Assembly (NCBI GenBank): GCA_041661965.1
Contig: JBAZTH010000003.1
Span: 5,107-69,106 of the forward strand
DNA length: 64,000 nt
Direction of reading: 5' to 3'
DNA from: Candidatus Margulisiibacteriota bacterium
Lineage (GTDB): Bacteria; Margulisbacteria; WOR-1; O2-12-FULL-45-9; XYB2-FULL-48-7
The notes beneath the pieces were generated by a model, which was not told the DNA's origin, did no database searches, and saw only the letters and a program-made list of their open reading frames with translations. The position numbers and the translations under genes were made by a program. Shown one piece after another: positions 625 through 21,083 of the stretch. Numbering within the stretch: the first letter of the stretch is position 1; every line of letters begins with the position of its first letter.

Positions 625-1629
625 TTATTTGTTGATGATCAGCTTGCTTTTTCCGACCAGGGAGATCTTCCGGTCCTTGAGCGAGACCCTGACCTGGTCG
701 CTGGTCAGCTTGTTGGTCCCTTGCTCGGCCCGCGAATTGCCGAAAAGGATAATGTTCTGGTCGTCGGTAAAGTAGTCGGCGGCGTCTCCCCAGGCGTTGA
801 TGTCGCGATAAGCGATCCGGACCTCGTTCTTAAGCTTTAATTTCTTTTTCTGTTGGTAATATTGGACCGCTTTGGCGGTGACCCTGGCGTCCTGCCAGCT
901 GATGCGCGGGTTGCCGTTGGCGGTAAAGATATCCTGCGCGCCGGTCACGCTGAATGTCTCGGCTTCCAGGGTGAGCGGAATACTGCCGGCCGGCGCGATG
1001 ACTATTTTCGGCGAGCCGGACAGGGTCATCATTTTAAATTCGACGTCGCCGCTCAAGGTCTCGGCGTAAGCGGAGGCGTCCCCCTTGTTCAGCATAATTC
1101 CCCCCTGGCAGAGGAGTTTTTGGTCGGCCAGCCGCCAGCGGAGATTCTTGGCCTTGAACCAGTAACCGAGCCCTTTTTTGTATTCCTTGGGGAAAGAAAA
1201 GAACGAGAGCTTGCCGGTCCTGATCGAACTAAGCAGCTGGTTGATCTTGCCGGCGGAGGCCAGGTCGTAGCCGACCGGATTGTCGAGATAGATCTCTTTC
1301 TTGTCTTTTTCCCAGAGGGCGGCGGGGGAGGAGAAGCGCAAGACCGGTTTTCCTTTATTAAAGAAAGTCCCTTCCACGTTTTGCAGGGCGGCGATCCCGG
1401 CATTTTTATTGAGCATGCCGGTGTCGGCTTCCAATTGCCAGTATTTGACCCCGTTGACGACCTCTTCGACCGTGACTTTTTTGAAGATCAGGTCGGCTTT
1501 CTTTTCCTGTTCCTTCAGAGAGTTATAGATCCGGCTGGAGACGTCCTCCTTCGGGACGAAGATCGCCCAGTAGAAGATCCAGACGAAAAAGACCACCGCC
1601 AGGATCGGTATTAAAGTTTTAAATCTCAT
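625..1629 (-). CDS. Membrane-anchored OstA/LptA–LptC-like protein (possible LPS transport component)
   Basis: 334-aa ORF with an N-terminal TM helix followed by beta-rich repeats; overall resemblance to the LptC/LptA OstA-N fold; sits in an LPS-heptose neighbourhood. Sequence similarity is judged by eye only. Confidence 0.45.
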   Translation of the reverse strand: MRFKTLIPILAVVFFVWIFYWAIFVPKEDVSSRIYNSLKEQEKKADLIFKKVTVEEVVNGVKYWQLEADTGMLNKNAGIAALQNVEGTFFNKGKPVLRFSSPAALWEKDKKEIYLDNPVGYDLASAGKINQLLSSIRTGKLSFFSFPKEYKKGLGYWFKAKNLRWRLADQKLLCQGGIMLNKGDASAYAETLSGDVEFKMMTLSGSPKIVIAPAGSIPLTLEAETFSVTGAQDIFTANGNPRISWQDARVTAKAVQYYQQKKKLKLKNEVRIAYRDINAWGDAADYFTDDQNIILFGNSRAEQGTNKLTSDQVRVSLKDRKISLVGKSKLIINK

Positions 1630-1717: not shown

Positions 1718-2329
1718 TTAGTATCCCAACGCCCTCAACCTGACCGCTTCCATGGTTTCCAGGAAGCCTTTCCATTTGTCCCCTTTACGGTTGTAGCCTT
1801 CCCCCAGCAGCAGGTGGAGCGCGGCGACGTTGCTGTCGATCGCCAGCCCTTTTTTGGTGACCTCCATGGCGGTGTCGGTTTCGTTGAGTTCCCCGTAGAT
1901 CAGCGCCTGGTAGCCGTAACCCCAGACGTTATAAGGATCGATCTTGAGGACATTTTCCAGTTCCCGGATCGCTTCTTTTTTCCGTTCGTTGAAGTAGTAG
2001 GCGAAGGCAAGGCGGAAGCGGAGCCGCCAGTCGCTGGGACTGTCGGTGACTTTTTTCTCGTACATTTCCAGCCCCTTTTTCTTAAACGAAGGGTCTAGTT
2101 CGACGGTCTTTTTAAGGTTGTTCCAGCCGTCCTGCAGGTTGTTAGTGTAAGCCATGGTGATCGCCAGATCGAAGCGGGTAGCGGCATCGTTCGGATTGGC
2201 CTTGACCGCCGCTTGTTTGGTCTCCAGCTCTTTCTGCAGTTCGGGCGTGATCCGCCAGGCCTGGGCGGAAAAAGCTGTAAGCAGTAAGCAGCAAGCGGTA
2301 AGCAAAAACAAGCCTCTTTTTATATTCAT
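1718..2329 (-). CDS. Secreted TPR-repeat protein
   Basis: Signal peptide MNIKRGLFLLTACCLLLTAFSAQA followed by TPR-like helical repeats; start overlaps the hldE stop by 4 nt. Confidence 0.55.
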   Translation of the reverse strand: MNIKRGLFLLTACCLLLTAFSAQAWRITPELQKELETKQAAVKANPNDAATRFDLAITMAYTNNLQDGWNNLKKTVELDPSFKKKGLEMYEKKVTDSPSDWRLRFRLAFAYYFNERKKEAIRELENVLKIDPYNVWGYGYQALIYGELNETDTAMEVTKKGLAIDSNVAALHLLLGEGYNRKGDKWKGFLETMEAVRLRALGY

Positions 2330-3780
2330 TTCTTCCCTCCCAGTATTTTAGCGACGATGTTAGTGGTCGAGCGGCCTTTGATCGGCGGAATGACGACAAC
2401 TTTGCCGCCAAGCGCTTCGACCAGTTTTTTCTCCGGCAGGTCGTTAACGTTATAGTCCCCGCCTTTGACGTGAATATTGGGTTCGACCGCTTTGATCAGA
2501 TTATCGGGCCGCAGTTCGCCAAACAAGATGACATAGTCGACGCATTCCAGGGAGGCCAGGATCTCCGCCCGTTCCAGTTCCGAGACGTAAGGGCGGGCTG
2601 GTCCTTTGAGGGCGGCGACCGACTTGTCGGTGTTGACCCCGACGATCAGAATGTCGCCGAGCTTTTTGGCTTCGCGCAGGTAGCGGACGTGGCCGAGGTG
2701 GAGGATATCGAAACAGCCGTTGGTGAAGACGATCTTCATCCCTTCGTTTTTCAGGTTCTTGGCGATCGGCCCGATCTCCCGGCGGGTCTTGATCTTGCGG
2801 GTGACCGGCTCATGCCCGGCCAGCGATTCTTCCAGCTCTTCCCGGAAACAGGGGGCGGTCCCGATCTTGCCAACGACAACCGAGCCGGCGAAGTTGGAGA
2901 GGAGGGCTGCTTCCCGCGTCGAGGCGCCGGCCGCCAGGGCCAGGGTCAGGGTGGCGATCACGGCGTCGCCCGCGCCGGTGATGTCGAACACTTCGCGGGG
3001 GACCGCCGGGAAGGTCTTGGCCTCTTTGGCGTCGAAGAGGGTCATGCCGTCGCGTCCCCGGGTGACCAGGACATAGCGGCTTTTGGTTTTCTGCAGGAGG
3101 TTTTTACCCGCTTGCCGCAGGGTTTCGTCGTCTTTGATCTCGACCCCGGCGGCGACAATTGCTTCCCGTAAATTTGGGGTGATGATAGTGACCCCGGCGT
3201 ATTTGGCGTAGTCATTTCCTTTCGGATCGACAGCGACCGGCTTTTTGTGGGCTTTGGCCAGCTTAATGGTCGTTTGGCAAATCGTTTTGGTGACCAATCC
3301 TTTTTCGTAGTCGGAGATAACGATCGCGTCAACGCGGGGGATCAGTTCCTTGAGCCGTTTAACGATCTGTTGGGTTAGGGCGAGAGAGAGGATCGATTTG
3401 TCTTCCCGGTCGACCCGGACGACGTGCTGGGAGGCGGCGATGATTCTCGACTTGAGGATGGTCGGCCTAACATCGTCGACAATGATGAAATTGGTGCTGA
3501 CGTTGATCTTTTTCAGGGCGTTGAGGAGTTTTTCGCCCGAGCTGTCCCGGCCGATGATCCCGATCAGGTAGGGGGTACCGCCCAGGGCGGCGATATTGGC
3601 GGCGACGTTGCCGCAACCGCCGGGGACATGGGTCGTCTTTTTAACGTCGGCGATCGGGACCGGCGCTTCCGGCGAGATCCGGGAGACCGTGCTCCAGATA
3701 TGCTCGTCGAGCATCAGGTCGCCGACGATCAGGACTTTTTTACCGGCAAAATTTGAGATGTATTTTTTTAGGTTGTCCAA
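2326..3780 (-). CDS. hldE: Bifunctional D-beta-D-heptose 7-phosphate kinase / D-beta-D-heptose 1-phosphate adenylyltransferase
   Basis: 484 aa. N-terminal ribokinase-like domain (GAGD motif) plus C-terminal cytidylyltransferase domain (MKIVFTNGCFDILHLGHVRYL). Confidence 0.85.
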   Translation of the reverse strand: MDNLKKYISNFAGKKVLIVGDLMLDEHIWSTVSRISPEAPVPIADVKKTTHVPGGCGNVAANIAALGGTPYLIGIIGRDSSGEKLLNALKKINVSTNFIIVDDVRPTILKSRIIAASQHVVRVDREDKSILSLALTQQIVKRLKELIPRVDAIVISDYEKGLVTKTICQTTIKLAKAHKKPVAVDPKGNDYAKYAGVTIITPNLREAIVAAGVEIKDDETLRQAGKNLLQKTKSRYVLVTRGRDGMTLFDAKEAKTFPAVPREVFDITGAGDAVIATLTLALAAGASTREAALLSNFAGSVVVGKIGTAPCFREELEESLAGHEPVTRKIKTRREIGPIAKNLKNEGMKIVFTNGCFDILHLGHVRYLREAKKLGDILIVGVNTDKSVAALKGPARPYVSELERAEILASLECVDYVILFGELRPDNLIKAVEPNIHVKGGDYNVNDLPEKKLVEALGGKVVVIPPIKGRSTTNIVAKILGGKK

Positions 3781-3831: not shown

Positions 3832-4410
3832 TTATTTTTCAAGAGCTGATCGGCCAAGGAGCCAGTCGGCCGCCGCTGACAGGTCGGAGGCGATAAAGTC
3901 GGCCGGTTTCCGGAGCTTGTTTTTTGATTCGGCCCCCAGGCCGGTCAGGACCAGGATCGTTTTGGTCCCGGCGTTCTCCCCGGCTTCAATGTCGCTCGGC
4001 TTGTCGCCGATCATATAGGAGCGGCTAAGGTCGAGCTGGTGTTCACGGGCCGCTTGCTTCAGCAGACCGGGGGAGGGTTTGCGGCAGTCGCAATCATCTT
4101 TATAAGGGTAAACCCCGTGTTCGGGGTGGTGGGGGCAGTAGTAAGCGCCATCAAGGTGAGCCCCTTTTGCCAGCAGGAGCTTGTGCATCGTTTTATCGAT
4201 CGTCTGGAGCATATCTTCGGAGATAATTCCCCGGGCGACCCCCGATTGGTTGCTGATGATGATCACCGGCCAGCCGGCTTCGTTCAGTTTTTTGATCCCC
4301 TCGATCGCTCCCGGCAGGAATTCGATCTCCCGGGGAGAGCTTAAGTAGTGGGCGTCCAAAATGACCGTACCGTCACGGTCGAGAAAGACGGCTTTACTTT
4401 TTTCAGCCAT
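3832..4410 (-). CDS. gmhB: D,D-heptose 1,7-bisphosphate phosphatase (HAD family)
   Basis: MAEKSKAVFLDRDGTV... HAD motif I DRDGT, and CPHHPEHG...CDCRKP zinc motif typical of GmhB. Start placed at ATG 4410 rather than the upstream in-frame M at 4449. Confidence 0.8.
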   Translation of the reverse strand: MAEKSKAVFLDRDGTVILDAHYLSSPREIEFLPGAIEGIKKLNEAGWPVIIISNQSGVARGIISEDMLQTIDKTMHKLLLAKGAHLDGAYYCPHHPEHGVYPYKDDCDCRKPSPGLLKQAAREHQLDLSRSYMIGDKPSDIEAGENAGTKTILVLTGLGAESKNKLRKPADFIASDLSAAADWLLGRSALEK

Positions 4411-4412
4411 AT

Positions 4413-4466
4413 CGCGATAATTATAACATAATCTACAAAGAAGAGTCATTGTAGACTATTATCGCG
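4413..4466. promoter_or_regulatory. Nested inverted repeat (CGCGATAAT...ATTATCGCG with inner TCTACAA/TTGTAGA) immediately upstream of gmhB
   Basis: Palindromic architecture seen in sequence, in the gmhB 5' region and 3' of the rSAM gene. Confidence 0.25.
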
Positions 4467-4514: not shown

Positions 4515-5711
4515 TTATTCAAAACAGAAAGAATAGTTCTTTTTTATTTGACGGTTGATATAACTGATCGCTAGACTCTTCTCTTGATAGAGACGGCCCC
4601 AGAAATAGGCCGCTTCTTTGATCAGAAATTTTTTCAATTCGCACAACAGCCGGGCAGGTTCGGTGGAACGGCTCCTAACTGTTTCATAATAGCACTGGCC
4701 GCCGCAGAGCTTTTTGGCGGCGCATTTCTCACATTTGGCCAGGAAGCCGGCCTGCGCCGCCGGCGGTGGGTTTTTAATTCCCTTAACAACGTTGCCAAGC
4801 GAAGTCTCCGGCAGCCGGCTGAAAGAGGGGCACAGGAAAATATCGCCTCCGGCGTCTACATAAAAATAATCCAGCCCGGCCGGACAGCGCCGGGTTTGCT
4901 CCGCGCCGGCGTAGGTCCGCAGCAGGAATTTGCCCAGGTAATCACCCGGATTAAAAAGCGAAAAGAAATAGCCGTAATCGTTTTCTTTAATGATCTTTTT
5001 CAGGATAAAGTCGGTCAGGGCGCGATATTCTTTTTTGACTTTTTTCAGCCGGTCGGCGGTCAGCTTGAATCTCCGATCGCTGCCGCGGTACGGTTTGACG
5101 ATGATGCGGCGAAAGCCGAGCAAGTAAAGCCCCTTGAGCCGGTAGGTCAAGAGGGGATCGTCATAAGTAAAAGTTGAATTGGCATTGTCGATCAGAGAAA
5201 AGGCCTTCTGCTCTTTCAATTCGCCGATCAGCCGCAAAACACGGTCGCCGCTGCCGCGGCCGGACCGATCCCGGCGGTTGATGTCATTGAGGAGCGGAAA
5301 GCCGTCGAAGGTAAGCGAGAAACGGATCAGCCGCCGGCGCCGTTTGTTTAATTTTTTGATCCGGGCGATGAGACCGGGCGTCAAAAGCGTGCCGTTAGTC
5401 GTGAAATGCAAGAAGATCTTGTCGTTTTTGCGGGCGATGACATATTCGGCGAGCCGTTCGATCAATTCAAAATTTAGCAGCGGTTCGCCGGTGCCGGTAA
5501 AATCCACACAATATTCTTGGGGCGGCGGCGACTGTTTCCGGTAATAGTCCAGAAAGAAATCAATGGCTTTGACAGCCGATTCATAGCTCATTTTCTGCGG
5601 CTGCCGGTGCTTTTGCGCTGCGAAACAATAGCGGCAGTTGAGATTGCAGCCCGAACAGTTTTCCAGGCTGATGGTGACAACGCGTTTTTGAAGTGTTGAT
5701 TTGGTTGCCAT
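4515..5711 (-). CDS. Radical SAM protein with C-terminal SPASM-type cysteine cluster (peptide/protein-modifying maturase family)
   Basis: CSGCNLNCRYC (Cx3Cx2C) near the N-terminus; C-terminal cysteine-rich CPAGLDYFYVDAGGDIFLCPSF ... CEKCAAKKLCGGQCYYE resembling SPASM auxiliary-cluster motifs. Confidence 0.7.
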   Translation of the reverse strand: MATKSTLQKRVVTISLENCSGCNLNCRYCFAAQKHRQPQKMSYESAVKAIDFFLDYYRKQSPPPQEYCVDFTGTGEPLLNFELIERLAEYVIARKNDKIFLHFTTNGTLLTPGLIARIKKLNKRRRRLIRFSLTFDGFPLLNDINRRDRSGRGSGDRVLRLIGELKEQKAFSLIDNANSTFTYDDPLLTYRLKGLYLLGFRRIIVKPYRGSDRRFKLTADRLKKVKKEYRALTDFILKKIIKENDYGYFFSLFNPGDYLGKFLLRTYAGAEQTRRCPAGLDYFYVDAGGDIFLCPSFSRLPETSLGNVVKGIKNPPPAAQAGFLAKCEKCAAKKLCGGQCYYETVRSRSTEPARLLCELKKFLIKEAAYFWGRLYQEKSLAISYINRQIKKNYSFCFE

Positions 5712-5712
5712 G

Positions 5713-6117
5713 TTAGCAATAAACCCTGACCGGGTTGAGGTTCGGGCCCGGTTTTAATGGAATATAAGAAAAACGATATTGCCCTCTGGAGCTATTTTCA
5801 TGGCGTAATTTAATAAGGGCGCCTGCTTTTTTGACGATGTCCCTGGTGAATCTCGTCGGATCAGTGATTACTCCGGCGGCGATCATGCTAAGCAGCGTGT
5901 TCAAATAATAAAGACTATCTTTAGGCAGCCGCTTGACAATCGCTTTTTGCACGCTATAAGACTTGTTGAGAAGTTTTAGCGCGAAATCATCGGTAATCTC
6001 GTCCGGCTGGAGGCCAGGGGTTTGATTGGTATCAAACGATTTGAGGAAGACGGCCGCTTCTTTGTCGGCGGCAGCTTGAACGGTGTTAACTCTGTTAGTG
6101 TTTACCGGCTGCGGCAT
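5713..6117 (-). CDS. Hypothetical 134-aa protein, translationally coupled between the lipoprotein and the rSAM gene
   Basis: ORF abuts both neighbours (1-nt gaps) and shares their codon usage; no recognisable domain. Confidence 0.45.
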   Translation of the reverse strand: MPQPVNTNRVNTVQAAADKEAAVFLKSFDTNQTPGLQPDEITDDFALKLLNKSYSVQKAIVKRLPKDSLYYLNTLLSMIAAGVITDPTRFTRDIVKKAGALIKLRHENSSRGQYRFSYIPLKPGPNLNPVRVYC

Positions 6118-9100
6118 TTATTTGCTCCCCGGCGCCAGCCGATTCTCGACCGCCTCGGTCAACTGCGTTAGGGAATCGGTTCTGACTTTATCCAACAACT
6201 CTTTTAATCGCGCTTTAAGCGGACCGTTCCAGGGCAGGGTGGCGATAAAATCCGCCAGGCGGTCTTTGTCGAGCAGGAGATATTTTCTGGCTGATTCTTC
6301 AGCGCCTTCTTCATTTATTCCAGCGCTTCTAATCCTGTTGTTGCCCGGCGGGTCGGCGATCGGTTCCAGTTCGATCGGGATTAAACTATAATTTGGATCG
6401 AGATAGCCGACCGTAAAACCGGGGGTTAGGTCATGGAACCGAGGCCGGTCGACGCCCGGCGCTGTTTCTTGCGGTTCTTCAAAAAGTATCGGGCCGGGTT
6501 CTTGCAGGATGGCAGACAGACCCTGATCGAGAGTGAGTCCGGCCAGGTCGGCGAGCGCCGCCAGCTCGGCCGCCAGTCCCCGGGCTGTCTGCTGGGAGGT
6601 TGCGGTGTTGCGGCCGCTTTCCTTTAGCCGGTATTGAGTGATTGCTTCAAAATGAGCGACCGGTTTAGCGCCGGCCGGTTTGTCATCCGCCGCAGCCAGA
6701 AAGATTTCGTTGCGGTCAAAATATAAAAGATAGCGTTTCAGCAATTCAACAAAGGTCTTGGCGGCCAAACGCGGACCCTGCTTGTTGGGCGAGATCACGG
6801 GAAGCCATCGAATCTTGGCCAGCAACACCCGCTGCCGGTCAAAGTTTTCTTTTTCCCGTCCGGCCGGAACCGGCTTGAGCAGCGCCGGGATATCCTTGGT
6901 TATGACCTCTCGCCTGGCTTCTTCGAAGACCAGACGAGGGACATCTTTATCGTTAATCCCGGCCATGCGCGCCAGCGTGGCGATATCCCGCGCGGCATCG
7001 CTGCCCGCTTCGGCCTGTAGCCGCAAGATCTCGTCGTTAAGCATCAGCTTTTGGTCATCAGGGACGAACGAAAGATTTTGCAGGCGCGCCAGCGCGTCTT
7101 CCTTTAACAACACGACATCGTAATTGAGCGGCTCGGCCAGGCCCAATCCAACCAGCATTCTTTTTGCGTAGGCCGGGGCGGTCTCGGCCACCACCCGCCG
7201 GTAATGATCGTACCCAACGATGATATTGGCGGCCAGGAATTTGAACTCTCCGCTGTCCAGAGAGGTTAAATCTGTTTCGGAGTAGCCGGCCCGCCGCCTT
7301 GTGTTTTCATAACCTGCTTTAACGTTCAGAAGCATTCTGATTTTATTAAGCAGCGTTTTTTTGTCCGCTTGTTTGGGGGAGAGGGCGAAAATTCCTGCTT
7401 TCAGCTCGTCTACCGATAACTTAAATTTATCGCGCACTTCGGTATCGCTGGGCGGCGAATTGGCCACGGACAAGCTAAACTCATCGACTCCGGCATGAAA
7501 ATAGCTGTCAAGATCGTCTTCTATATTATCGGCTAACGGCCGGCCCTGATAGGTGTTGGCCGGATTGGCGTAGATCCGGAAAAAATGACGGACAAAATCC
7601 TCCAGCTTGTAGCCTTCCACCAGACCGTCTTCGTATTCACGAAAGAGCTGGAAGGCCCGGCCGCGGTCCAGAGGATTGGTATAACAGGTCGTGGCGGCAA
7701 AGCGAATATGCCATTTGTCGATCAAATGGTTGCCCCGGTTACGCTCATCCGCTGACAGCGCGTTGGCGCCGTAGACCACGCAGCCGATTTGGTGCAGGCG
7801 TTGCGCGGCCGCCTGCTCTTCTGCATCATTTTTGAATGGGCGGGCCAGCAGGATCCTGGCTTCGGCCAAATATTTATCGGTGACAGCCCTTAATCGCGCA
7901 TAGTCCGGCCGATTGTTCTCCGCAGCTTTATCAATCGGCGCAGGGGCGGGTGGAACGGCTTTTGTTCCGGGCGGGATTTCAGCCGGAACGCTCAATTTAT
8001 CCTGCCTGCTCAAGGTAACCCGGCCGCCGCCTTCATAGAAAGTGTTCCGCGAGCCGCCGCCGCCCCGGTTGGGAGCGGGAGCGCCGCTGCTTTCAACGAC
8101 TATCGCGACATTATCGGTCTGTTTGATGGTGCTTCTATAAACCGTGAGCTTTTCTTCCCTTAATTTCGCCAGCTCCTGAGAGTCTTCGATGGCTATTCCG
8201 GCGACCAGGACCATCGGGTCGAGCAGGTCGGCCCGCAACTCCGAAACCGGCTGCCAGCCGGCATAATTGCCCAGCAAAACCGCCTGGCGGTTCTCGTTAT
8301 AAATCGCCAGGTCGTCGTGATCAGAATATCTGGCCACCACCAGCCGGTTGTCTTCACCGAGCATTTCAGGATAAAAGAGCAGAATGCCGAGCGCCCCGAT
8401 GCCCCGGAGCGTGCACTCCTGGCCGCCCGGGCCGACCAGCTTCGGCCGGCCGTTAACTTTTAATTCTCCGCTGATAATTGAGGTCAGATATTTGGCGTTC
8501 GGGTCATACTTTGATTTCGATTCGATCAGGCCGATCAGTTTTCGCTTTTTTTCTTCGAGGTTCATACTTTGGTCGTGCGCCGCCGGTTCATACTCTTTGA
8601 CCCAGCCGGCGATTTCCGCCTGTAAAATCGGAAGCGGGATGCTCGGATTCGGCATCAGATAAACGGTGTCCCGCGACCGCTGATCCCAGAAATCGGCTGC
8701 AAATAAAAACGCGAGGAGTTTGGGATCAACCCGGTTGCCTGGTTTGCCCAGATCGGCCAGGTATTGGTCAAGCCAGGTTTTGCCCTCCTGCCGCAGGCCG
8801 GCAAGTTTTTGTTGAGCGGCCTTTCGCTCGGCGGGAGAGAGCGGGTTGGGTTTGCCTGCGGGTTTGACCGACATCTCTTCCCAGGGAGAAGTTTCCGAGC
8901 TCGCGTTGGGACTGACTGTAAAGCCGGCGTTAACATCGAAACGTGGTTCGGCGGAAAAAACGGCGTTTTGGCTCGCGGAACGGGCACCGCCCGACGCTTT
9001 ATTTATTTTTTCGACCAGGCGATCGATTTCTTCCTTGCCCGGCGGTGAATTATCGGCTGTTTCAGCTGCCGGGTTAACCAGCAGTGGTTTCCCGGCTTTT

Positions 9101-9288
9101 CCGTTGGGCGGAGGCGGGGTGAGTGTTTGGCCGGTTGGGTTTCCGGGAGTTGAGGAAGTCCTTGTTAGTCTTCTCAATAGGCTGTCCTGGCCGCAGCCGC
9201 CGACAGCCACTGTATGCAGCGCGGCCGAGAAAAGAAAGGTCCGGGCCAGCCGGTTTCTGAATAACGAGCCGATTCTAAGATTAATCAT
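6118..9288 (-). CDS. Large (1056 aa) predicted lipoprotein of unknown function
   Basis: N-terminal signal with lipobox-like AVGGCGQ; Pro/Gly-rich low-complexity linker; long globular remainder; no recognisable catalytic motif. Confidence 0.55.
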   Translation of the reverse strand: MINLRIGSLFRNRLARTFLFSAALHTVAVGGCGQDSLLRRLTRTSSTPGNPTGQTLTPPPPNGKAGKPLLVNPAAETADNSPPGKEEIDRLVEKINKASGGARSASQNAVFSAEPRFDVNAGFTVSPNASSETSPWEEMSVKPAGKPNPLSPAERKAAQQKLAGLRQEGKTWLDQYLADLGKPGNRVDPKLLAFLFAADFWDQRSRDTVYLMPNPSIPLPILQAEIAGWVKEYEPAAHDQSMNLEEKKRKLIGLIESKSKYDPNAKYLTSIISGELKVNGRPKLVGPGGQECTLRGIGALGILLFYPEMLGEDNRLVVARYSDHDDLAIYNENRQAVLLGNYAGWQPVSELRADLLDPMVLVAGIAIEDSQELAKLREEKLTVYRSTIKQTDNVAIVVESSGAPAPNRGGGGSRNTFYEGGGRVTLSRQDKLSVPAEIPPGTKAVPPAPAPIDKAAENNRPDYARLRAVTDKYLAEARILLARPFKNDAEEQAAAQRLHQIGCVVYGANALSADERNRGNHLIDKWHIRFAATTCYTNPLDRGRAFQLFREYEDGLVEGYKLEDFVRHFFRIYANPANTYQGRPLADNIEDDLDSYFHAGVDEFSLSVANSPPSDTEVRDKFKLSVDELKAGIFALSPKQADKKTLLNKIRMLLNVKAGYENTRRRAGYSETDLTSLDSGEFKFLAANIIVGYDHYRRVVAETAPAYAKRMLVGLGLAEPLNYDVVLLKEDALARLQNLSFVPDDQKLMLNDEILRLQAEAGSDAARDIATLARMAGINDKDVPRLVFEEARREVITKDIPALLKPVPAGREKENFDRQRVLLAKIRWLPVISPNKQGPRLAAKTFVELLKRYLLYFDRNEIFLAAADDKPAGAKPVAHFEAITQYRLKESGRNTATSQQTARGLAAELAALADLAGLTLDQGLSAILQEPGPILFEEPQETAPGVDRPRFHDLTPGFTVGYLDPNYSLIPIELEPIADPPGNNRIRSAGINEEGAEESARKYLLLDKDRLADFIATLPWNGPLKARLKELLDKVRTDSLTQLTEAVENRLAPGSK

Positions 9289-20177: not shown

Positions 20178-21083
20178 TTGGTTCATGAATACCCTGATAA
20201 ATCTGACCATTATGCTATACTTTCTGGCATGAATAATATTTTAGCAAAGGCAAAAATAATGTTTTTAAGGGTCGGGTTCTTCTTTGTTTTATTTGTTTAT
20301 TATTTGTTTTTACTGATGATGATTGAGTGTGTCATTTGGTTGTTTTTGGTAAATATATATCCAGCGTCAGCTTGCAATGCTGGCATGGGGAAGGCGACCT
20401 TGTGGGGCCTTATCCTCGCCTTAACTACGGTGGCGTATACTTTTCGAAGCATGTTAATAGCCCCTCCTTTTAGCAAGCAAAGCCTCTTGTTAAGTGCTTT
20501 AATATTGCTTCGAGCAACAGGGATATTTATTTTAATTTCTGGTTTGATTACCATTTTGCTGGTTAATTTAGAGAATGGCAAAGCTAACGTTAGAGAATAT
20601 TATAAGCAACAGACAATCAACTCAAACGTAGCAGAGGGTGTTGTTGGCAACTATGGATTTGATAAAGCAGAGAAAGTTCATGCAAATCTTATAACTGGTG
20701 CATCTGAAGGGAATATTGAGCAAATTAAGTATGCGCTACAAAACGGCGCAAATGTTAATGATGTGGTGGGGCCGGGCTTGTCAGCTTTGTATTATGCGGC
20801 TAGTAACGGCAAATTAAATGTAGTAATGTCCCTGATCAAACATGGAGCTGATATGGAATATCATAATGGTCCAGCCCAACGCACTGCATTGCATGAGGCT
20901 TCGTTGCGAGGGCATTATGATATAGTCAATTATTTGTTGAAAAATGGAGCAAATGTTAACTCAAGAAATAAATTTGATAGAACTCCTCTTTATTATGTGA
21001 CGAGTCCTCCCCCACCATTAAAATTACCTGAAAACCATCAGGAAATCGCAAAATTATTAAAACGCTTTGGCGGAATCATCTGA
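20178..21083 (+). CDS. Membrane protein with C-terminal ankyrin repeats
   Basis: N-terminal hydrophobic helices followed by 3 or more ANK repeats (NGANVNDVV...ALYYAASNGKLNVVMSLIKHGAD...TALHEASLRGHYDIVNYLLKNGANVN). AT-rich gene; start codon uncertain. Confidence 0.6.
   Translation: MVHEYPDKSDHYAILSGMNNILAKAKIMFLRVGFFFVLFVYYLFLLMMIECVIWLFLVNIYPASACNAGMGKATLWGLILALTTVAYTFRSMLIAPPFSKQSLLLSALILLRATGIFILISGLITILLVNLENGKANVREYYKQQTINSNVAEGVVGNYGFDKAEKVHANLITGASEGNIEQIKYALQNGANVNDVVGPGLSALYYAASNGKLNVVMSLIKHGADMEYHNGPAQRTALHEASLRGHYDIVNYLLKNGANVNSRNKFDRTPLYYVTSPPPPLKLPENHQEIAKLLKRFGGII

Follow-up and report, generated by a model that had tools for sequence, protein, structure and literature searches.

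A radical SAM/SPASM enzyme of Margulisbacteria and an adjacent protein with a C-terminal cysteine: a probable enzyme-substrate pair

Introduction

Which protein does a radical S-adenosylmethionine (rSAM) enzyme with a SPASM domain modify in a Margulisbacteria genome, and at which residue? We addressed this question for a stretch of 64,000 nucleotides (nt) of Candidatus Margulisiibacteriota bacterium (assembly GCA_041661965.1, contig JBAZTH010000003.1, positions 5,107 to 69,106), hereafter the window. The gene of the enzyme (398 residues) is preceded there by the gene of a 134-residue protein and, before it, by that of a 1056-residue protein (Table 1). A preliminary description, made from the letters of the window, had presented three contiguous genes with spacers of 0-1 nt, and the open reading frames (ORFs), their coordinates and the spacers are indeed as it claimed: the first two ORFs meet at ...aaa TAA ATG ccg (0-nt spacer) and the last two at ...tgc TAA c ATG gca (1-nt spacer), with GGGGAG 7 nt ahead of the start codon of the 134-residue ORF. 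From this spacing, the three ORFs may be translationally coupled and co-transcribed.

Our results suggest that the 134-residue protein and the rSAM enzyme are very probably substrate and enzyme, with the C-terminal cysteine of the former as the site of modification. The balance also leans modestly towards a precursor-maturase pair acting on this cysteine that probably yields a thioether macrocycle with its topology reversed; a long-range thioether as the product falls slightly short of an even call. We infer the substrate relationship with strong confidence, and the thioether chemistry and the acceptor site, which are drawn from analogy with known enzymes, with moderate to weak confidence.

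Conservation and Synteny of the Gene Pair

The enzyme belongs to a small group. Among 5.8 billion proteins, only five other close clusters were found (49-68% identity), the next relatives being at 33%. Scans with the rSAM alignment added two species from the GTDB species genomes and two further loci from the JGI metagenomes. The orthologs, carried by metagenomic contigs, present 49-90% identity and represent seven further Margulisbacteria-type lineages. At every ortholog locus examined (L001, L002, L003, L005, L007/L008, L009 and L017), a gene encoding a protein of 127-155 residues without Pfam match stands directly 5' of the rSAM gene, and no ortholog lacking a small gene with a terminal cysteine was seen. 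In one locus (L005), three tandem copies of the small gene precede a single rSAM gene, which is typical of precursor genes. The flanking genes differ by locus (EF-Ts/S2; GH8 and methyltransferase with SAICAR synthase; carbamoyl-phosphate synthase), and gmhB is found 3' of the rSAM gene only in the window and in L001. Nothing could be learned from three more distant loci (L014, L015 and L018).

Since the small gene always precedes the rSAM gene while the flanks change completely, the conserved unit is, as judged from the sequences, the pair of the 134-residue protein and the rSAM enzyme and not the trio. The synteny of the pair in all orthologs, regardless of the flanks, argues that the two are enzyme and substrate. 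The preliminary description had named the 134-residue protein among the obvious co-encoded partners of the enzyme. That it is the likely target agrees with a pair that is syntenic at every ortholog locus, duplicated in tandem in one genome and always Cys-ended. It had also called for a co-occurrence analysis of the three genes: the small gene and the rSAM gene do co-occur; outside the window, the 1056-residue gene adjoins them only in the closest relative.

These observations bear on the most conservative explanation of the locus, namely that the rSAM is a housekeeping SPASM enzyme of cofactor or heme type and that the 134-residue ORF is an unrelated or spurious neighbor. The surrounding genes are housekeeping genes and the closest non-orthologous rSAMs (described below) present weak matches to NirJ/AhbD-type models, both of which would fit this explanation. 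However, the pair is kept where the small protein has fallen to 28-40% identity to that of the window and where the flanks are wholly different. Moreover, the small ORF is conserved at the protein level with invariant termini, and peptide-maturase models far outscore cofactor models on the enzyme. We therefore regard an accidental adjacency as extremely improbable; a housekeeping cofactor enzyme unrelated to its neighbors, which the preliminary description had set against its own proposal, is not what we found.

The Enzyme and Its Missing Recognition Domain

The translation of the rSAM gene shows the motif C22x3C26x2C29, and the protein scores 55.6 bits with PF04055 (gathering cut-off: 29.5), which places it in the radical SAM superfamily. 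The SPASM model TIGR04085 is matched with 38.3 bits (cut-off: 27), and the seven cysteines of the SPASM motif (C276, C294, C327, C330, C336, C340 and C357) are invariant across orthologs (alignment A4). In the SPASM subfamily, the seven-cysteine motif serves two auxiliary 4Fe-4S clusters.

The enzyme scores below the cut-off of every curated NCBIfam family. Its best matches are formers of Cys thioethers or peptide maturases: the PapB ranthipeptide maturase (NF047865; 133.7 bits relative to a cut-off of 340), nearly at full length, the SCIFF maturase (TIGR03974; 115.8 and 425, respectively), QhpD (TIGR03906; 114.0 and 453) and a nif11-type maturase (103.3 and 518.7). Lower scores were obtained for anSME (TIGR03942; 62.8 and 349), MftC (TIGR03962; 33.6 and 265) and the model of DynA, which is related to DarE (54.5 bits). 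Scores of the thioether-forming families are thus about double those of anSME or MftC. The same trend is found with solved structures, the nearest of which is CteB (5wgg; E = 6.7e-24, relative to 1.7e-4 for anSME). These results bear out the earlier view of a maturase-type rSAM/SPASM enzyme outside the described families. NCBIfam 20.0 and Pfam contain no model for this enzyme subfamily or for the precursor, and PADLOC returned only viperin-like matches of a generic kind, on the rSAM core, and a chance match of 12.5 bits. In the literature, including full text, searches on Margulisbacteria radical SAM enzymes, C-terminal cysteines with SPASM enzymes and maturases independent of a RiPP recognition element yielded no description of this family.

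Maturases of peptides made on the ribosome and modified after translation (RiPPs) are compared here with respect to this RiPP recognition element (RRE). Alignments of the enzyme of the window begin at residue 98 of CteB and at profile positions 92-93 of SCIFF and QhpD, its CX3CX2C motif starts at residue 22, and the ORF cannot be extended upstream, as no other start codon lies between the preceding stop and its own. Since the CteB alignment starts only at residue 98, the N-terminal RRE is missing from the enzyme (CteB residues 1-97 are without counterpart). No PqqD-like element, fused or adjacent, was found either, and the pair does not have the composition of an RRE-dependent RiPP maturase system. 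We observed, in three ortholog lineages (P0007, P0009 and the rSAM of L017), about 20 conserved residues of the form I(K/N)H(H/R)G..F.FD.D...F...P at the N-terminus. This remnant resembles the initial strands of an RRE that has degraded. It is lost entirely from the enzyme of the window and is also absent in two other lineages.

The Small Protein and Its Terminal Cysteine

The 134-residue protein contains a single cysteine, which is its last residue, and its tail ends in SYIPLKPGPNLNPVRVYC before the stop codon. The terminal cysteine is present in 12 of 12 family members (in the contexts RVYC, RIFC, RVFC, RIYC, SRC and PRC) and is their sole conserved cysteine, which makes it the proposed site of modification. 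For comparison, only one of 58 genes in the window is Cys-ended, based on crude gene calls, and that one is the 134-residue gene; the frequency of cysteine is 1.0%. The family is narrow: four to eight homologs, all Margulisbacteria-type, were found among 5.8 billion proteins. Its members have 127-155 residues and 28-91% identity to the protein of the window, and their alignment contains no conserved stretch of 7-10 columns. The preliminary description had called this protein unannotatable, and we indeed found no match in Pfam or NCBIfam for it, nor for the 1056-residue protein.

The tail has a recurrent layout. It starts with the motif [ST][YFH][ILV]xL (S117-Y-I-P-L121 in the window), found in all 12 members at 16-26 residues ahead of the terminal cysteine; 11-21 variable residues rich in Gly, Pro, Asn and Ser follow, and then Cys-COOH. 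Between the two conserved ends, the loop differs among members in both sequence and length. The most conserved element of the tail is its terminal R[VI][YF]C or xRC, and position -3 is Arg in most members. The SYIPL motif could provide the acceptor of the proposed ring or, alternatively, serve in recognition.

We predicted the structure of the protein with AlphaFold2 (AF2) from an alignment of eight sequences; the AF2 models presented here all rest on shallow alignments. Helices are predicted at residues 7-28, 43-50, 54-63, 66-80 and 92-108 with a predicted local distance difference test (pLDDT) of about 80 and without beta-sheet, so that residues ~7-108 would form a helical domain. The tail (residues ~109-134; pLDDT of about 40) is probably disordered. 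A Foldseek search of this moderately confident model against the PDB found no fold relative, as nothing scored better than E = 1. Taken together, the conserved ends around a variable loop, the tandem paralogs, the flexible tail and the tight linkage to a maturase-type rSAM give the protein the traits of a precursor.

Because the enzyme is devoid of an RRE and the folded domain of the small protein is about the size of one, the small protein might instead be an adaptor or chaperone that took over from the lost RRE and hands an unlinked peptide or protein over to the rSAM. An RRE is disfavored by the all-helical prediction, which is unlike the winged-helix fold of PqqD and the RRE, and the protein lacks a match to PF05402. 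We excluded the small protein as a discrete RRE on these two grounds. An invariant terminal cysteine, a hypervariable tail and three paralogs in tandem are traits of a precursor, and three ortholog lineages still carry the N-terminal remnant on the enzyme itself. Such an adaptor role is therefore very improbable.

A Proposed Reaction and Its Relation to Characterized Systems

In the reading that we prefer, the 134-residue protein would be the substrate of the rSAM enzyme. Its helical domain of about 100 residues would be a large leader or docking domain built into the protein, in place of the lost RRE, and would offer the active site a flexible C-terminal tail. The thiolate of Cys134 would first bind an auxiliary Fe-S cluster, by analogy with PapB, CteB/Tte1186 and QhpD; the 5'-deoxyadenosyl radical would then take a hydrogen atom off an unactivated carbon, and a C-S bond would form. 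For PapB and Tte1186, contact of the substrate cysteine with the auxiliary cluster before C-S bond formation was shown with selenocysteine-substituted peptides (PMC10177961). Since no residue follows Cys134, the acceptor has to be upstream. Its likely place is in or near [ST][YFH][ILV]xL, which would yield a macrocycle of 17-27 residues enclosing the hypervariable loop.

At the superfamily level, the pair is an ordinary rSAM/SPASM maturase with an adjacent precursor and follows a familiar logic. The new elements are the large helical leader, the lack of an RRE, the single terminal cysteine, the lack of a protease or exporter and the restriction to Margulisbacteria. PapB, the maturase of the ranthipeptide freyrasin and the best-scoring curated family, is of the rSAM/SPASM type and links the sulfur of Cys to an unactivated carbon. 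Its peptide precursor, PapA, is short and carries repeated CX3D motifs in which the cysteine stands upstream of the acceptor, whereas the protein of the window has one terminal cysteine in 134 residues and an enzyme without RRE; since nothing follows this cysteine, the CX3D/E arrangement of cysteine and downstream acidic acceptor is absent.

CteB/Tte1186, the maturase of SCIFF peptides, is the closest solved structure, and the match covers its rSAM core and SPASM domain. SCIFF systems are two-gene pairs located among housekeeping genes without dedicated protease or exporter. The pair of the window resembles them in all these respects. However, SCIFF peptides are found in Clostridia and have about 45 residues and six cysteines, whereas the substrate family described here is found in Margulisbacteria and has 127-155 residues and one conserved cysteine; the gene adjacent to the rSAM in the window, with its 134 codons and single cysteine, does not encode a SCIFF peptide. 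QhpD, which matures the gamma-subunit QhpC of quinohemoprotein amine dehydrogenase, acts on a small protein, not on a short secreted peptide, and forms Cys thioethers in it. QhpC carries several Cys-Asp/Glu links, all of which are internal, unlike the terminal cysteine of the window. Neither qhpA, qhpB, qhpE nor other amine dehydrogenase genes were found among the neighbors scanned.

MftC of the mycofactocin system is an rSAM/SPASM enzyme that acts at the extreme C-terminus of its precursor, MftA. MftA ends in Val-Tyr, and its modification needs the RRE protein MftB and the peptidase MftE. In contrast, the precursor of the window ends in Tyr-Cys, and no PqqD-like gene, MftB or MftE is present. 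Among rSAM thioether formers, none but NxxcB is known to us to use an acceptor N-terminal to the cysteine, which is the topology required here. It reportedly forms a beta-thioether between a cysteine and an upstream Asn in a short-peptide system linked to quorum sensing in streptococci. The NxxC spacing is absent from the family of the window, in which position -3 is mostly Arg. The enzyme NxxcB is named in PMC11851443. Finally, the darobactin maturase DarE, also an rSAM/SPASM enzyme, recognizes its precursor DarA independently of an RRE (PMC10705402). It differs from the enzyme of the window in making ether and C-C links on Trp and Lys and in keeping an N-terminal lobe of about 60 residues that is needed for binding.

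If our preferred reading holds, a folded helical leader of about 100 residues would stand in place of a short leader and an RRE. The single reactive cysteine at the last residue would imply a reversed cross-link topology or a new C-terminal chemistry. The pair would also represent a cytoplasmic, pair-only organization in a candidate phylum without cultured biochemistry.

A Related Clade of Enzymes with Cys-Ended Partners

The nearest non-orthologous rSAMs (P0011-P0022) present 31-33% identity to the enzyme of the window and all score below the NCBIfam cut-offs, including those of the NirJ/AhbD-type SPASM models that they match weakly. They fall in the sister clade of the Margulisbacteria group in a crude neighbor-joining tree without support values. 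Their hosts have a GC-content of about 30%. In all five related-clade loci that we inspected, the gene just 3' of the rSAM gene encodes a secreted protein, with a signal peptide, that ends in [STP][STP]C. Among these five partners, only the two S8 peptidases are mutually homologous, which leaves at least four unrelated families. This points to the C-terminal cysteine as the element that the related rSAMs recognize, and these enzymes and their partners may form an unannotated system of C-terminal Cys modification.

The pair of the window might accordingly be one branch of an unrecognized PapB/SCIFF-like rSAM/SPASM clade that targets the C-terminal cysteine of an adjacently encoded protein: secreted enzymes in low-GC bacteria (S8 peptidases, DUF6973 and others) and a small cytoplasmic helical protein in Margulisbacteria. 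This broader view is tentative, a real possibility but less likely than not. If true, it would represent a new modification of the protein C-terminus (staple, tag, warhead or cofactor) rather than a conventional RiPP. The large secreted enzymes among these Cys-ended partners suggest that this unannotated modification of proteins could be broader, and the presence of an rSAM gene beside an ORF ending in Cys could serve as an annotation rule for orphan SPASM substrates.

The related clade also brings forward a different chemistry for the same pair, in which the rSAM would transform the C-terminal cysteine itself rather than cross-link it to a distant residue. This could take the form of an MftC-like oxidative decarboxylation giving an enethiol or aminovinyl-type end, of an anSME-like Cβ oxidation, or of a short ring with residues -1 to -3, and would leave a warhead, cofactor or tag at the C-terminus. 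The partners of the sister clade, which are unrelated to each other, share only the terminal [STP][STP]C, and R[VI][YF]C or xRC is the most conserved element of the tail in the window family. A terminal cysteine puts a free carboxylate beside the thiol, and the models of anSME and MftC do match the enzyme, weakly. MftC itself acts on a C-terminal residue. However, the about twofold higher scores of the thioether families and the much stronger match to CteB than to anSME speak for a thioether. In addition, a ring or a role in recognition accounts better for [ST][YFH][ILV]xL and the variable loop. We consider this local chemistry rather unlikely, though still viable.

Several observations weigh against the thioether macrocycle that we prefer. 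First, the enzyme scores far below all curated cut-offs, and the chemistry of these families cannot be carried over to it with confidence. Second, the partners of the related clade share only their last two or three residues, which argues for a chemistry local to the C-terminus and not for a long-range ring. Third, the order of residues in PapB-like systems, with the cysteine before the acceptor, is opposite to the topology that a terminal cysteine needs. In CteB, QhpD and the sactisynthases, the cysteine is N-terminal to the acceptor. The same order is found for PapB, and transposed substrates are not processed by this enzyme (PMC9413430). Fourth, the tail of the family contains no invariant candidate acceptor besides L121, G124 and R131 (alignment A2). 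Fifth, no conserved protease, exporter or other transporter adjoins the ortholog pairs, and the locus does not have the makeup of a classical RiPP cluster. Finally, the family is tiny (about eight lineages), such that its conservation statistics rest on few independent events.

The 1056-Residue Protein

The preliminary description had considered the 1056-residue protein, labeled a lipoprotein, as a member of the same functional unit. This protein has very few relatives: seven matches, including itself, were found among 1.84 billion representatives. Two are long homologs (P0130 and P0131; 36-37% identity), found in samples that also yielded rSAM orthologs, though on other contigs; presumably they belong to the same genomes. 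One is encoded beside a RelA/SpoT-domain gene and the other is followed by an 89-residue ORF and a glycosyltransferase gene. At the loci of P0131, this 89-residue ORF has no Pfam match and overlaps the large homolog at the stop and start codons, and the glycosyltransferase is of the GT2 family. This layout, a small ORF abutting a large protein, resembles that of the window. Three shorter homologs fuse a conserved domain of about 250 residues to leucine-rich repeats.

This domain (residues ~150-390; the coordinates in Table 1 span ~147-402) contains the invariant elements YLMP, DP, GGQxC292xxR and H324 (alignment A5). In its AF2 model (predicted template modeling score of 0.70), the Cys occupies the N-terminal end of a helix, and a single residue places the His ahead of a strand. 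Foldseek yielded only weak matches, all with E > 0.1, which include three proteins of the transglutaminase fold (menin, E = 0.16; a transglutaminase, E = 1.3; PNGase, E = 1.3). On the basis of this model, it is plausible that the domain is a Cys-His hydrolase or transglutaminase-like, and it may represent a new Cys-His effector or hydrolase domain. The lipoprotein label is plausible at most: the N-terminus presents a lipobox-like ...HTVAVGGC32 (relative to [LVI][ASTVI][GAS]C), but this cysteine is absent or not in a lipobox in P0130, P0132 and P0133, and the homologs keep just a hydrophobic FSAGxH segment there. The N-terminus carries a signal anchor or possibly a lipobox.

We also searched for the C/S-x-P/A-x-R motif of anSME-type targets. 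The motif is not found in the 134-residue protein. In the 1056-residue protein, only two Ser-type matches were found (SPAER151 and SDAAR763). Chance would produce about as many, and the Ser of SPAER is Thr in P0131. No sulfatase domain is encoded in the unit, and an anSME-type target in the large protein, for which the preliminary description had proposed a check, was rejected.

Could the three genes nevertheless form one unit, with the 1056-residue envelope protein as substrate of the rSAM or as co-worker of the modified small protein in a heptose or envelope process? The spacers of 0 and 1 nt would fit, as would the closest relative, L002 (88% identity), where a C-terminal fragment of the large protein is seen directly 5' of the small gene, and L001, where gmhB is likewise 3' of the rSAM gene. 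Elsewhere, the large gene does not abut the small one: at least 130 nt of non-coding DNA lie 5' of the small gene in L001, both the large protein and the heptose genes are missing from four other ortholog loci, and P0130 and P0131 are on different contigs with unrelated neighbors. Moreover, the last residue of the large protein is not Cys, and its Ser-type motif matches are at chance level, one of them being Thr in a homolog. A functional unit of three genes is thus highly unlikely, and the 1056-residue protein is an orphan contiguous with the pair in this genome, not a conserved partner.

Genomic Context

The genes gmhB and hldE follow the rSAM gene on the same strand (Table 1), and the position of the unit upstream of them had led to the idea of a link with ADP-heptose and the cell envelope. 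The adjacency was found only in the window and in L001, with other neighbors elsewhere, and is lineage-specific without functional signal. Because the alignment with the GmhB model begins at residue 18, the true start of gmhB is probably Met14 (MAEKSKAVFLDRDG). The top sigma-70-like match on the minus strand (ATGACT-18-TATAAT with TG) is located just 5' of this Met14, and gmhB-hldE may therefore have their own promoter and be transcribed apart from the rSAM gene. Overall, the promoter and terminator scan did not give clear operon boundaries.

Table 1. Coordinates of features in the window and at other loci (handles precede positions outside the window)
Feature	Location	Strand	Remarks
RCC1-repeat protein, 455 residues	9357-10724	minus	upstream of 1056-residue gene; seven RCC1 repeats and an N-terminal hydrophobic segment
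1056-residue ORF	9288..6118	minus	
Conserved domain of 1056-residue protein	8085-8850	minus	
134-residue ORF	6117..5713	minus	precursor-like protein
S117-Y-I-P-L121 motif	5755..5769	minus	start of tail
Cys134 codon	5716..5718	minus	last residue; family-defining
rSAM/SPASM ORF, 398 residues	5711..4515	minus	
gmhB	4449..3832	minus	downstream of rSAM; NF006506, 186 bits (cut-off 178)
Sigma-70-like match	4449..4420	minus	
Probable gmhB start at Met14	4410-4449	minus	
hldE	3780..2326	minus	3' of gmhB; both domain models above cut-off
LptC-LptA-like ORF, 334 residues	625-1629	minus	
Ankyrin-repeat protein	20178-21083	plus	
RRE-like remnant	L003:1044-1180; L005:10001-10210; L017:~1030-1200		
Nucleotidyltransferase-like gene	L007:8453-9220; L008:4228-4932; L009:3352-3969; L003:16-342	minus in L003	just 5' of small gene
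Methyltransf_24 gene	L005:11419-12051; L006:1830-2462		27 nt 3' of rSAM
89-residue ORF beside P0131	L021:6548-6817; L022:10976-11245		
Related-clade loci	L010:1971-4876 and 6001-8342		partners of 484 residues (...ISPC) and 305 residues (DUF6973; ...PSSC)
Related-clade locus	L011:6001-9334		partner of 639 residues (S8 peptidase; ...QATC)
Related-clade locus	L023:5001-9061		partner of 572 residues (...VSSC)
Related-clade locus	L026:1505-4911		partner of 645 residues (S8 peptidase; ...IPSC)

Some ortholog loci present additional genes beside the pair. A nucleotidyltransferase-like gene with the motif GSxxxGxxxxFSDVDL was observed just 5' of the small gene in L003 and L007-L009; NTP_transf_2 is a clear match in L003 and a weak one in L007, the only one of L007-L009 scanned. 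No counterpart was recognized in the window. In the lineage with three paralogs (L005 and L006), the gene 3' of the rSAM encodes a class I methyltransferase, which may represent an extra tailoring step.

The neighbors scanned in the window encode housekeeping or repeat proteins. Further downstream on the same strand as the pair are a TPR protein and an LptC-LptA fusion: the single 334-residue ORF has an LptC-like N-terminal part and an LptA/LptD_N-like C-terminal part, and appears to encode a fused LptC-LptA bridge protein. The RCC1- and ankyrin-repeat proteins near the locus are eukaryote-like. Together with the homologs of the large protein that are fused to leucine-rich repeats, they hint at a host- or protist-associated lifestyle.

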